Assembly (NCBI GenBank): GCA_964530555.1
Contig: CAZHBD010000002.1
Location: 1,036 to 65,035 of the forward strand
DNA: 64,000 bases
DNA from: an uncultured Candidatus Saccharibacteria bacterium
GTDB lineage: Bacteria; Patescibacteriota; Saccharimonadia; Saccharimonadales; AWTP1-31
Direction of reading: 5' to 3'
Shown: positions 57,001-64,000 of the stretch, one piece after another
How the letters are laid out: each line of letters opens with the position of its first letter
Numbering within the stretch: position 1 is the first letter of the stretch
Position numbers: made by a program

Positions 57001-60000
57001 GCATTGTTGCAATCCAGTATGTTTGTTTTGCTTGAAAACAAGGAGTCCAATACAAACAGCCAGTAACACAAGGATTGATACGAGTAAAAGCACAATCTTT
57101 TTCACCTTATCACTATACCAAACTTACGTTATGGGGACAGGGTCGAGTCGTGCGACAACATTACTGTGCGTACGGTGTCTAGAAGGGTCTGGCAACTTGG
57201 CGATGCGCCATGATGAAGGTAGCCTGAAAACTTGTGTGTCAGCGATTAAGCTAAAAACATATGGATTTAGGGCTGTCTTAGAATATGCGATAGCTATTTA
57301 CTAAAGATGCTCTGAAGTTTTATGACAATCAAGGTTGCTACTGCTACTTCTAGCAGACTGAGGGGAATTGCAGGAATCAAGAGTTTTATGGGCAGTACCC
57401 CTAGGTTGCCAATAACTACCCACATCAGGACGAAACCGCTTGTCCAGGAGATTGCTATCGTCTGTTTTGGCGAAAATCGACTAGCCAATGTGTATATAAC
57501 TATTGCAAGTCCTAGTGACCAAACTCCCCACAAAGCACCATTTATCGTTTTCTCGGGAAAAATCAATCCTAAGCTCGCATAACGCTCTACCCAAAATGAT
57601 TTGAAAATGAGTTGATTGCGAACAAACTCAGAGACAGCTATCCAGAGTGTCGCAGTGGTTATTGTTAGGGTTGGCCGCAAGAATTTTGAATTAAGTAATT
57701 TATGATTCATACGGTTAGTGTAGCAAATATTCATCGCCACACGAGAGACTAAGCATATACGGGATTGGAGGCTACTGAAGAGCTTCTTGCGACAAATGCC
57801 TGCGCTACTTTCAACGGCGTTTCGTTACATCTAACTTTGTGTAATAATAACAACTATGAATATTTTTAAGGGCAGAATAAACAGGTCTACATTCTTACTT
57901 GGTAACGTAATTTTTGGGGCTTTTGCGTTCTTGTTGTCACGCCCAGTTATACTTGACTACCTGGAAGGACGTAAAGATATGGTACCATTGGTATTATTTG
58001 CATACCTAGTTTTGATAGTTTTAATGATTTTCGGTCTCTCCATCTACATTAGACGATTGCACGATGTAGGTTTAACAGGCTGGCTATGGCCAATTATGAT
58101 TCTGCCAGCCGTTGACATTGTGTTACTGGTTTTACCGGGAGTAAAAAGGAACAACAAATATGGCTTACCACACAAAACTTCATTCGACTTCAAGATCTTA
58201 TACCAGCTGTCTAAGAATAACTAGCAGACTTTAAGTTAGAAAATTATGAAGCCCATCAAAGAGGCTATGGGTAACAAAGCTCATGCTTCATAAACGTAGA
58301 TGACTTCAGCAAGACATTCTTTTTCCGCTTTTCTCACATTATTATGCTCAGTACTTGGTACTTCTACGCCATCTGGGAATTCTTCTCCAAACCCGGTAAC
58401 CAGGCGTCCCATGCTTTTTATATACGATACTCCATCTTCATGTTGAAATACCTTGGGAGCAGCGCTTAAGCAGTCACCGCATCCGTAACATCATCGCATC
58501 TACTCGTACAAAGAAGTTTGGGTTGCCCACACAGTTAGGTTTGAGGCATAAAATAAACATATACAATCTTAAACGTTTTGGAGGACATCCTAGAACATGT
58601 TGCAACTGTTTTCAATGGCTGTACACAGACATGTTAAGAGCACCTTTCATCGATAATCTGTGCTATATTTATGCTTATGGTAATTAAAAATCAATCAGGA
58701 TTCAGTGCTATCGTTTTATTAATCGTCATAGCCTTGATTTTGGGAATTGGGTTCGTTGGGTACGGCGTCGCTAAGAATAAAGATGAAGGTAAAACCAAAC
58801 AAAATCCTCAAAGTACTCATTCTACGGTAGAGTCTGGTAAAGTTGCTCAAAAATCGTGCGATACTGCGCCTACAATTTCTCTTCCAGTGGAAAGCCAACG
58901 CGTAAAAAGCATTTTGTATCCTGGCCAGGTACGGGGCAATAATTTCAAGCCCCACGGTGGCTTTATACTTAACGGTACCAACCAAGCGGATATATCACTG
59001 CCACTTGATGCTAAAGTCATAGATGGCGTACGGTACATAGAGATGGGCGAGGTGCAGTATATGTTTGATTTCGAGGCGGATTGTGGTTATCGGTTTCGAC
59101 TCGATCATCTGAACACCTTAACTGCTGAGTTTCAGAAAATTGCCGAACAACTACCAGCGCCGACTGAAAGCTCTCAAACGACGATGGTTAATTCAGCCAA
59201 TTTCGACGCGGGTACAAAGGTGGCTCTTAAAGTTGGCTTTGTTAAGACAGGCAATAACTCATTTGATTTTGGTCTCTATAATATGAATAAACAGAATGCC
59301 GTTTCTAAACAGGCCGATTGGCCTAATGATTTTCAGCACCAAACAGAGTTAGCCACTCATGGCGTGTGTTGGTTCGACTTTCTTTCAACGAAAGATGAAA
59401 CTTTTGTACGGTCTCTGCCAGCCGGAGATGGCCAGCAAGGTACCAATAGCGTCTATTGCAAATAACAAAAAAGATCCGATCCTTTTCAAGTATAGCCGGG
59501 ATTGGAGGGCCATCGTAGACTCTATTTCAACTAAGCTGGATTTAGCATAGAACGAGCCAACTCAATAGCTAATTCATTATCAGGCGTTGGATATTTAGGC
59601 GGTGCGTATCTTGAGGGGTTCCATATCAGATCGTATGCGGAACGAATTTCGTCAACAGATGCGTCCAGTAGCGGTGGTGTAATCCAAGGCATCCATCTGC
59701 GATATTCATGATTAGGATCTAGATGGTTATCTCTGAAGTCAACCGCAACTTTAGTGACCCAATCAATAGTTTGCTCATAGTCAGCTTCTGTGTAATGTAG
59801 TATCTTTTTGGTTGGAAAGGACCCACGACCACCCTGATGGATATAGTCTGCACCTAAACCGACATAGCTGAAAAACTGTCCGAAACTAGGATCGATATAT
59901 ACTTTCTTACCCTCTTCGACAGTAGTTGCTAAAGCGTGTGTTCCTAAATCAAATTTGTTCTGAACTTCGTTAACTTCTACTCGTGAAGTTACGCCGACTT

Positions 60001-63000: not shown

Positions 63001-64000
63001 CAACAAGTTCGCACCCATGCTCGAAGAACTCATTCGCTGGAGAGGTATCATTGGTAAAGATTTTGAGAGTAATAAAGAGGTAGAACGTCTGAACAGTAGT
63101 AGCTACATTCCTTAGGGGGTTAGCACAGTCTAGTCTATTAAATTCATCTCAACGAGTCGAGGCATGACATTGTGCTCGAATATAGAACCAAGCGGTACGC
63201 CGGTTGTATGGGTGTTAACCCACATTATCTCTTCAATCTCACTACTTGGAGCTGGCTCACCCTTAGCGTTTCTGACGAGGAACACCTTCATCTCGACAAC
63301 TTTACTTTCGTTACCAGCGGCTTCAGCGGTGAATGTGCCAATCTCTTCTAGGTCTTCCTCTACTACTTCGACCTGCACTTCTTCCATTAACTCACGAACA
63401 AGGGTAGCTTTTGCTGTCTCGTCGCCTTCAGGTTTACCACCTGGCCCTACAAATACATCTTTACCCTTAGTACGAGTCACTAAGAACTTACGGTCTTTAA
63501 TAAGAACACCACCTGATTTGAGTATGTCTGGGGCTTTTGTCATGGTGACAGTATATCAAAGAAAAAAGACTCCTCATCAGAGAAGTCCTATAGTGCTAAT
63601 GCTTGGAGGGCCATCTGGGACTCGAACCCAGGACACGCGGCTTAAGAGGCCGCTGCTCTAACCAGCTGAGCTAATGGCCCAAACTATTGGGACCGAAAAA
63701 TCTTACCATATTACCCCTGTAAAGACAATCAGTTTCTTATTTGGTTATGCTTGCGCTCGCTGGGTTTGTGGGTAGACTTATGAGTATGACCAATCCAACT
63801 AACTTTGAGTTCCGTCGAAAACATCTAAGCGTTCCCCATGAACCCAGACTTTTAGTCGCTGCGCAGGAACTGTGGGACGCACTGCCAGGTTCCGCCAAAA
63901 GCGACCTAGATCCACCAACGACTCATACCCCGTTAACTGATACGGAGCGATTATATATTGCAGCCGATGATGTCATGCTGTCGTTCTTCACAAGCCCCAA

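Follow-up and report, generated by a model that had tools for sequence, protein, structure and literature searches.

What has placed a row of small genes, each parted from the next by a copy of a tRNA end, beside a lysine tRNA gene of a Saccharibacteria genome? The DNA analysed was a 64-kb stretch, called the window below, of a contig from a metagenome-assembled genome (MAG) of the Saccharimonadales (Patescibacteria, or candidate phyla radiation, CPR). Saccharibacteria have genomes of about 1 Mb with few recognised mobile elements, and their gene gain is poorly understood. The locus lies downstream of tRNA-Lys(CTT) and consists of direct repeats of the tRNA 3' end that bracket, in most cases, single genes. 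We consider it probable, at about three chances in four, that it is an accretion array of recombinase-less mini-cassettes, built by serial site-specific insertion whose target is the tRNA-Lys(CTT) 3' end itself or a copy of it within the array, with a large serine recombinase (LSR) as the putative enzyme and mobilisation in trans or in cis as the presumed mode of movement. For CPR bacteria, a regular and widespread array at a single tRNA gene would offer a route of gene flux that is both concrete and testable.

Repeats and unit anatomy downstream of tRNA-Lys(CTT)

The tRNA-Lys(CTT) gene was found intact at 63604-63680 on the minus strand (ARAGORN; Rfam tRNA, 68.5 bits). Its 3' end, GATGGCCCTCCA (63604-63615, minus strand), anchors the array and would be the primary attachment site. 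As an earlier sequence-only reading of this DNA had claimed, these last 12 nt are the reverse complement of TGGAGGGCCATC in the repeats, and the stretch from CCTCCA to GATGGCCCTCCA is common to the repeats and the tRNA 3' end. The same reading had placed all repeats in the orientation of the tRNA, and this was confirmed. Eight clear repeats, all on the minus strand, were present only within the 6.4 kb downstream of tRNA-Lys(CTT), together with one doubtful copy. An exact 19-mer was located at 59501, and copies with one or two mismatches at 60201 and 61240 (0.02 matches expected by chance). A profile made from the eight copies recovered all eight with nhmmer at 57.75, 58.56, 59.49, 60.19, 60.46, 61.23, 62.36 and 62.97 kb, all on the minus strand and with E values from 3e-10 to 9e-7, while no other match in the 64-kb window was better than E=3.5. 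At least nine repeats had been counted before. Eight of them stand at these E values, but the ninth, a possible oldest and decayed repeat at 57266-57300 (minus strand), is only a 19-nt match of 84% identity to the copy at 60206 (D13), is not statistically supported and is detected by neither hidden Markov model (HMM).

The second of these models was built from 46 copies in other genomes only and held no window sequence. It matched the window at 59503-59534, 61242-61280, 60203-60237 and 62386-62415, with E values from 4e-9 to 5e-5, and gave no match elsewhere in the window. The alternative that the repeats are a dispersed, REP-like element, which the sequence-only reading had named against itself, is refuted by this result.

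As shown by the alignment of the window copies on the tRNA strand, the boundary repeats much more than the tRNA tail. Each unit runs from the stop codon of the preceding gene through a left arm, the core ATGGCCCTCCA, the spacer ATCCCGG, TTATGCTTAAAC, a G+C-rich hairpin with a T-run and a GATAT/TATGAT box to the ATG of the next gene. The left arm reads TTAGTTGC-n-AyA-nnn-TCTACG in the window and is conserved over about 33 nt, with the general form TTAGTTGCnAyAGCnTnnACG. The core is an 11-12-nt copy of the tRNA end, and the right-arm motif GGTTATGCTTAAAC follows 4-7 nt past it. An extended -10-like box of the TGTTATGAT or GATAT type stands about 50-60 nt past the core, right before the ATG, and presumably acts as a promoter. 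The whole boundary measures about 80 nt. The consensus of 50 distinct copies from 33 loci is ctgaAatTTAGTTGCaAtAGC.T.tACGATGGCCCTCCA, followed in most of the 50 by (G)CTTATGCTTAAAC, a hairpin and TTTTTGTTATGAT. Similarity among repeats is 70-90%, both inside one genome and from one genome to another, and the spacers are uniform per genome, for instance ATCCCGG in the window and TAGCAC in locus L032. The left arm and core form a non-palindromic segment, the left arm being 33 nt long, and the sole hairpin of the boundary is the terminator, whose sequence is variable. Inspection of the left arm by eye gave no convincing hairpin or covariation, and a dyad-symmetry score had no more than a weak peak, with GG|CC of the core at its centre.

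The trailer of the tRNA itself (63544-63603, minus strand) contains AGCATTAGCACTATAGG, a hairpin at 63566-63589, a T-run and a GATAT box ahead of the ATG of the first cassette gene, as read from the sequence and from a terminator scan. Repeat 62979 (62942-63012) has its core CCTCCA at 62986-62991, the right arm ATCCCGGTTATGCTTAAAC, a terminator at 62948-62970, the TTTTTCTTTGATAT box and a degenerate left arm (nhmmer E 9e-7; repeat families D2/D3). Repeat 62373 (62336-62409) consists of left arm and core at 62376-62409, the right arm CCGGTTATGCTTAG and a terminator at 62342-62364 (non-window HMM, E 5e-5). The left arm and core of repeat 61239 (61240-61273) read TTAGTTGCGATAAGTTCTACGAAGGCCCTCCATT on the minus strand (non-window HMM, E 6e-9), and a plain terminator at 61216-61232 follows, which is the same type of flank as that found after the tRNA in unoccupied genomes. 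Repeat 60477 (60440-60516) has its core at 60484-60489, the right arm ATCCCGGTTATGTTAAAG, a terminator at 60446-60468 and a degenerate left arm (nhmmer E 4e-8; family D3). Repeat 60201 (60201-60234) comprises left arm and core with one mismatch to the 19-mer (non-window HMM, E 1e-5), and repeat 59496 (59466-59534) comprises left arm and core at 59501-59534 with the exact 19-mer, the right arm ATCCCGGCTATACTT and a small hairpin with a T-run (non-window HMM, E 4e-9). The copies far from the tRNA are visibly decaying. The degenerate repeat 58576, CAGTTGCAACATGTTCTAGGATGTCCTCCA (58562-58611), was matched by the window profile at E 3e-8 and by the non-window HMM only at E=1, and the degenerate repeat 57761 (57745-57798), with the core AGCCTCCA and the right arm ATCCCGTATATGCTTAG, was matched by nhmmer at E 1e-8 (family D2).

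Terminator-like hairpins were called by the scan after the tRNA and after repeats 62979, 62373, 61239 and 60477. Several of the repeats had also been said to reproduce the downstream flank of the tRNA. This holds for the hairpin and the TTTTTCTTTGATAT tail, which are common to repeats 62979, 62373 and 60477, but not for the CCGGTTATGCTTA spacer, which in the window does not stand beside the tRNA, where AGCATTAGCACTATAGG is found instead. The higher A+T content noted before was reproduced, the G+C content being 0.39-0.46 in the island and about 0.49 in the remaining window.

Occurrence and polymorphism in other Saccharibacteria

With the last 24 nt of tRNA-Lys as a probe, 71 loci from GTDB species representatives and at least 80 metagenome contigs were collected (at least 151 loci). 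All 71 loci from the species representatives belong to Saccharibacteria. Many of the retrieved loci carry further copies of the tRNA end downstream, with arms like those in the window. Extra copies were detected by a left-arm HMM at 45 of the 152 listed Saccharibacteria tRNA-Lys loci, and at 36 of the 99 of those with at least 1.5 kb of downstream sequence. This HMM gave 64 same-strand matches and one opposite-strand match in 480 kb downstream of tRNA-Lys, and none in 366 kb upstream of it. Pattern scans of metagenome contigs and viral contigs gave no match to the left arm, and viral contigs gave no match to the tRNA tail and a single match to the right-arm pattern, which was judged to be due to chance.

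The 68 intervals between repeats had a median length of 848 bp (range 391-4839), and 45 of them held a single ORF; sizes cluster at 0.4-1.5 kb with one gene. The ORFs of the intervals were co-oriented with the tRNA in 81 cases and opposite in 16, and the stop codon lay within the left arm in 15 of 38 cases.

Comparison of loci with and without insertions showed where the units begin and end. In L033 the site is empty and the tRNA is followed directly by ATTCACGAAGTCCC, while in L021, whose flank is 88% identical, 424 bp are inserted at that point. The insert of L021 contains a right-arm-like motif, a terminator, a -10 box, a gene, a left arm and a second ATGGCCCTCCA, after which the same ATTCACGAAGTCCC flank resumes. 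Two contigs of one metagenome behave in the same way, L118 being empty and L143 carrying an 848-bp insertion of this kind. From a point 617 nt upstream of the tRNA to the end of the first cassette, L090 and L111 agree at 99.9% identity, except for a 66-nt deletion in L111; past the first internal repeat they diverge. The contigs L035 and L050 come from the same MAG and show no difference up to and including the tRNA, but part 7 nt beyond it. Between the same boundaries, 2.6 kb were found in L049 and 0.46 kb in L095, with different content. One cassette stands at offset 363 in L087 and at offset 2489 in L092, and homologous cassette genes (DUF1801, NUDIX and P-loop kinases) occur at varying distances from the tRNA across genomes. 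The boundaries of the empty/occupied and strain-level polymorphisms lie exactly at the repeats. Together with the placement of 64 of 65 left-arm copies on the tRNA strand and the lack of any upstream, the empty and occupied pairs and the L090/L111 comparison support the earlier claim of repeated insertion at the tRNA-Lys 3' end.

In about 12 of the 71 genomes a contig ends within about 80 nt of tRNA-Lys, and several contigs break exactly 55 nt into the gene, a typical assembler k-mer overlap. This suggests that the assembly graphs branch at tRNA-Lys, as expected of a variable or repeated junction. Breaks at this tRNA are frequent in assemblies, and annotation and binning may take cassettes for core genes.

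A non-coding mini-element was also observed. In 13 loci of other genomes it is 130-280 nt long and stands directly after the tRNA-Lys terminator; it ends there in a 17-20-nt copy of the tRNA-Lys 3' end, GAGTCCCAGATGGCCCTCCA, and cassette arrays can begin past it. A similar element, which ends in a degenerate copy of the tRNA end, lies at 61073-61206 (minus strand) of the window and was recognised by its by-eye similarity to the L016 and L054 copies. In an alignment of six sequences, 17 of 36 predicted base pairs were still paired through two-sided changes, and no Rfam family matched the element. The element may represent a structured RNA that has not been described, or else a second attachment site that serves as a decoy.

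Candidate recombinase and competing explanations

No recombinase was found in the 64-kb window by tblastn with LSR or by Pfam on the 40 largest ORFs, in agreement with the earlier description of small units that lack an integrase. The same Pfam search gave no Phage_integrase match in the window, and none was found adjoining arrays in other loci. Probing by jackhmmer with XerD, lambda Int and gamma-delta resolvase gave no match, in a screen so insensitive that it missed the serine recombinase of L083. A 387-aa ORF adjoining the tRNA in L040 seemed integrase-like by its position, and it was rejected because its sequence is acidic and repeat-like and not that of a recombinase. Since the window encodes no recombinase, the array would depend on an enzyme encoded in another part of the genome or brought in by an incoming element, or else it is frozen at present.

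A search of the rest of the genome and of related genomes for a recombinase, beside tRNA-Lys or elsewhere, had been proposed as a check, and a candidate LSR family adjoining tRNA-Lys was indeed found, in elements with the same left arm as the cassettes. In L083, a 563-aa ORF lies directly downstream of tRNA-Lys on the opposite strand and contains Resolvase, Recombinase and Zn_ribbon_recom domains (Pfam). The ORF overlaps the tRNA end, of which its last codons are the antisense (...ETWRAIWDSNPGHAA). LSR genes also adjoin tRNA-Lys in L012, L024, L060, L123 and L130, and five longer contexts (L155-L158 and L160) have an LSR in the same position. The LSR elements are 5-11 kb long, and their cargo includes methylases, a SMODS protein and DUF5659. 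The family has more than 827 members at E<=1e-40, with a length of about 555 aa. In all 40 LSRs inspected, the C-terminal approximately 13 residues are the antisense translation of a tRNA 3' half (WRA..SNPGH), and therefore the attachment site would lie within the LSR reading frame and the tail of the protein would differ according to whether the element is integrated or excised.

The far ends of the LSR elements connect this family with the cassettes. Left arm and core were found there in L157 (TTTAGTCCTGATAACCTCCACGATGGCCCTCCA, E 2e-6) and L158 (CAGTTGCGATAGAGTTGACGATGAACCTCCA), with a weaker match in L155 and a degenerate one in L156, so that recombinase elements and recombinase-less units have an att arm in common. 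The left arm is therefore the distal attachment arm of the LSR elements, and the cassettes have it as well. L158 (GCA_038231155.1) contains a complete LSR element, the remnant of another and then six more left-arm repeats, which bracket RelB/YafQ, DUF1801, DUF1761 and EamA genes. In L077, an LSR gene remnant of about 140 nt lies between the tRNA and the array. From this evidence we infer, with slightly better than even odds, that the serine recombinase moves the cassettes.

Three further observations concern the recombinase elements and their tails. An additional tyrosine recombinase (Phage_integrase) of about 315 aa occupies a conserved position at 7563-8501 of L155 and 7389-8369 of L157 (locus coordinates), with a fragment in L083; it might be a multimer resolver or a second integrase. 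In the window, small plus-strand ORFs at 59359-59550 and 60083-60259, opposite to the array, translate the repeats as ...WRAIVDSISTK... and ...WRAIIEYVATN..., respectively. The same frame in other repeat copies gives WRAIV(E/D/Q)x(I/V)(A/S)T(K/N), which would be the alternative tail of the recombinase in the excised form. The idea that the left arm is antisense coding sequence for the C-terminal tail (WRAIV..) was set aside, as its variable positions follow a codon pattern only partly.

In the proposed mechanism, a cassette consists of a 4-7-nt spacer with GGTTATGCTTAAAC, a terminator with a -10-like box, usually one gene (rarely two or more), and a left arm with the core. Each insertion would restore the tRNA end, supply the tRNA or the preceding cassette with a new terminator and push older cassettes away from the tRNA. 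The enzyme would be an LSR of the family that lies directly against tRNA-Lys in relatives, and the cassettes would travel as non-autonomous passengers, moved in trans or, together with a neighbouring element, in cis. A circular cassette would join its own left arm and core (ACGATGGCCCTCCA) to its own right arm (ATCCCGGTTATGCTTAAAC).

Several findings weigh against serial insertion by such an enzyme. Besides the lack of a recombinase gene in the window, no circular cassette or excised form was seen, and all 40 inspected LSR proteins were in the integrated form. The left arms are degenerate in four of the eight window repeats. On the side nearest the tRNA, cassettes and LSR elements have different arms, GGTTATGCTTAAAC in the former and LSR 3' coding sequence in the latter, and the distance of the cassette arm from the core varies from 4 to 7 nt, which is awkward for a serine-recombinase site made of two half-sites. 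In LSR systems, attP x attB is the only pair allowed without a directionality factor, and serial insertion at an occupied tRNA therefore needs a special explanation. Furthermore, the host has no close relative in databases, and cassette polymorphism can be demonstrated only in other lineages. Named homologues of a 370-aa protein flanking the island belong to Patescibacteria or Saccharimonadales, the best being 47% identical, and no related locus for this protein was present in the genome contig collection. Because the best flanking homologue reaches only 47% and the genomes with these homologues have a different neighbourhood, a strain-level comparison was not possible for the window organism.

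Three other explanations were compared with this one. Instead of being units of movement, the cassettes could be remnants of 5-11 kb recombinase elements that integrated in series at tRNA-Lys and were then reduced by deletion to the distal cargo gene and the distal att arm. LSR gene remnants do lie by the tRNA in L077 and by an internal repeat in L158, the LSR elements have the left arm at their distal end, and the tRNA-distal copies of the window are decaying. However, the cassettes have in common a conserved proximal module (GGTTATGCTTAAAC, terminator and -10 box) that is not found at the proximal end of the LSR elements, the 424- and 848-bp insertions of the empty and occupied pairs carry both ends, and random deletions would not yield single-gene units clustered at 0.4-1.5 kb; we regard this origin as unlikely. 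A second possibility dispenses with a dedicated recombinase, the boundaries of about 80 nt acting as portable homology by which cassettes are swapped through natural transformation and RecA-dependent recombination. Saccharibacteria are naturally competent, and both the 70-90% likeness of the repeats and the homogeneous spacers within a genome (window and L032) are in keeping with exchange of this type. Yet the first insertion at a naive tRNA, with only 11 nt of shared sequence, could not be created in this way (L033/L021 and L118/L143), and the presence of the left arm as the distal arm of recombinase-bearing elements would be unexplained. Homologous exchange may contribute to the spread of cassettes, but there is little chance that it accounts for the array by itself.

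The repeat could instead be a functional RNA or terminator module, similar to a tRNA-like 3' untranslated region (UTR), which was duplicated with local genes and is no attachment site. A terminator hairpin is present in every unit and would lie in the 3' UTR of the upstream gene, and the left arm often provides a stop codon. Against this, copies of the family are confined to the region downstream of tRNA-Lys, with none upstream and next to none on the opposite strand, the presence/absence polymorphisms end exactly at repeats, and neither an Rfam match nor, by eye, a conserved pairing in the left arm was found, all of which makes this explanation very improbable.

A Xer/dif system was also tried, prompted by the TTATGTTAAAG-like right arms and by a peak of the cumulative GC skew in the window, and was rejected. 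The sequence TTATG(C/T)TTAAA resembles an XerD arm. No XerC-type arm and no 28-bp layout of 11-6-11 were found in the repeats, where the spacing to the core varies from 4 to 7 nt, and there was no canonical dif-like site near the island. The GC-skew peak of the window near 57-60 kb is confounded by gene orientation. A location at the replication terminus (dif) was not borne out, since no consistent change of GC skew occurred at tRNA-Lys among the tested flanks that reach 2.5 kb or more (57 upstream, 71 downstream).

Serial insertion by an LSR might be part of something broader, a general gene-capture platform at tRNA-Lys in Saccharibacteria and perhaps in other CPR bacteria. Such a platform would be integron-like but run by an LSR, with a terminator and promoter in each cassette, a site regenerated by each insertion and circles that move between cells and species. 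We hold this extension as tentative and rather doubtful. If it were true, the platform would be a main route of gene gain in these minimal epibiotic genomes, notably for nucleotide-salvage and house-cleaning enzymes. The recombinase family, with more than 800 members that each apparently end in a tRNA gene, and its site of about 50 nt could also give an integration tool for bacteria that are hard to manipulate.

Cassette genes, described systems and neighbouring features

The gene content given by the sequence-only reading was confirmed by Pfam for NUDIX, AAA_33 kinase, GAPDH-like and DUF805 proteins, and the remaining ORFs had no family. Cassette gene 1 (63130-63543, minus strand) encodes a NUDIX hydrolase of 137 aa (PF00293, E 4e-12), and cassette gene 2 (62412-62927, minus strand) a P-loop kinase of 171 aa (AAA_33, E 6e-17). 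Cassette gene 3 (61270-62295, minus strand) encodes a divergent GAPDH-like protein of 341 aa with Gp_dh_N and Gp_dh_C domains, and its TAG stop codon at 61270-61272 lies within the left arm of the next repeat. The same holds for a 58-aa ORF (60231-60407, minus strand) and for a 209-aa ORFan cassette gene (59531-60160, minus strand), so that the left-arm TAG inside TTAGTTGC ends three window genes. A search of 5.8 billion protein clusters gave the 209-aa protein itself as its sole match. Three window genes run against the array strand on the plus strand, namely a 180-aa ORF (60524-61066), a 264-aa membrane-anchored ORF (58671-59465) and a DUF805 membrane protein of 122 aa (57856-58224; PF05656, E 8e-16). 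A homologue of the 264-aa ORF was found by blastp clustering at the end of the L016 array in forward orientation. The last clear cassette gene is an ORF of 148 aa with four transmembrane segments (57294-57740, minus strand; ORF call), and no Pfam family was matched by it or by the 180-, 58-, 209- and 264-aa ORFs.

Cassette genes in other genomes encode NUDIX proteins, AAA_18 and AAA_33 kinases, DUF1801, NT5C 5'-nucleotidase, cytidine deaminase, HIT, RidA, nucleoside deoxyribosyltransferase, SRPBCC and methyltransferases, and a toxin-antitoxin pair was also among the sampled genes. Several of these functions fit organisms that scavenge nucleotides.

The architecture had not been recognised before from described systems. 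Relatives do exist in the ssrA islands (PMC3146451), the staphylococcal cassette chromosome (SCC) and islands of Prochlorococcus (10.1101/2020.12.28.424599). The closest described system is that of the Dehalococcoides ssrA genomic islands (ssrA-GIs), in which a 20-bp copy of the ssrA end flanks the islands of the tandem series, and a serine recombinase of about 540 aa lies against attL on the reverse strand (McMurdie et al. 2011, PMC3146451). Some of the tandem units lack an integration module and are viewed as cis-mobilisable (PMC3146451). Both systems have tandem islands past a small RNA gene and direct repeats of the 3' end of that gene. The ssrA-GIs differ in their target, tmRNA, and in being islands of several kb with several genes, whereas the present units target tRNA-Lys, measure 0.4-1.5 kb with mostly single genes, and have a terminator/promoter module, a 33-nt distal arm and a CPR host.

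In SCC and SCCmec, the Ccr large serine recombinases insert elements of 3-60 kb at the 3' end of rlmH (orfX), where tandem direct-repeat arrays arise and units without ccr are movable in trans. Composite and pseudo-SCC elements are thus alike in forming tandem arrays at the 3' end of a conserved gene, with units that lack a recombinase; they differ in their protein-coding target, their size and the absence of a promoter/terminator module for each gene. Integrons resemble the present array in their rows of mostly co-oriented, recombinase-less cassettes with single ORFs, in a site that adjoins the stop codon and in the expectation that the newest cassette is nearest to the primary site. They differ in having IntI and attI, a folded palindromic attC and promoterless cassettes expressed from Pc, none of which is found here, where the primary site is the end of a tRNA gene. 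The earlier comparison with integron cassettes therefore holds as an analogy only: there is no IntI and no attC-type hairpin, each cassette has its own terminator and -10-like box, and the array is not an integron.

Cis-mobilisable elements (CIMEs) are att-flanked segments without an integrase that stand in tandem with an integrase element using the same site; they are few, several kb long and lineage-specific. The present array differs from this concept, which is cited in PMC3146451, in that units without an integrase are dominant, miniaturised and widespread. As for the usual marks of a tRNA island, an intact tRNA, displaced co-oriented copies of its 3' end and, in other lineages, empty and occupied sites were all found, and an integrase within the element was not. 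Because the units contain no integrase, they qualify only as recombinase-less, CIME-like members. An LSR beside attL that reads toward the target is absent from the window and present in L083, L012, L024, L060, L123, L130 and L155-L160.

The Prochlorococcus tycheposon islands contain partial tRNA copies that separate insertions, newer insertions push older ones inward, and elements with an integrase are rare and transient while remnants are common (10.1101/2020.12.28.424599). They are alike in the streamlined genome of the host, the position beside tRNA genes and the partial tRNA copies. Tycheposons differ in carrying replication modules and an integrase of their own, which is a tyrosine recombinase or, in some elements, a small serine one (10.1101/2020.12.28.424599), and no regular single-gene array with a boundary of about 80 nt is described in that preprint. 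Tandem islands at a small-RNA gene are therefore known, and what differs here is the scale (mostly one gene, 0.4-1.5 kb), the regular boundary of about 80 nt, the dominance of recombinase-less units and the host group. A full-text literature search found no paper describing such arrays in Saccharibacteria or Patescibacteria, which, given its incomplete coverage, is absence of evidence only.

A second AT-rich island (39-45% G+C) was observed at 8257-15000 of the window, adjoining tRNA-Pro(CGG) at 8180-8256. Two identical 14-nt copies of TTTTATAACAGGGG, a direct repeat that is not tRNA-derived, flank it at 8304 and 14116 (0.02 matches expected by chance). The genes of this island encode DUF488, a type III restriction-modification pair, a serine hydrolase and a MazG fusion, without a recombinase. 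Just beyond the tRNA-Lys island, a protein of 1919 aa is encoded at 49841-55600 on the plus strand. By eye it has NHL-like repeats, fibronectin-like segments, several transmembrane stretches and a C-terminal histidine-kinase module, an unusual architecture.

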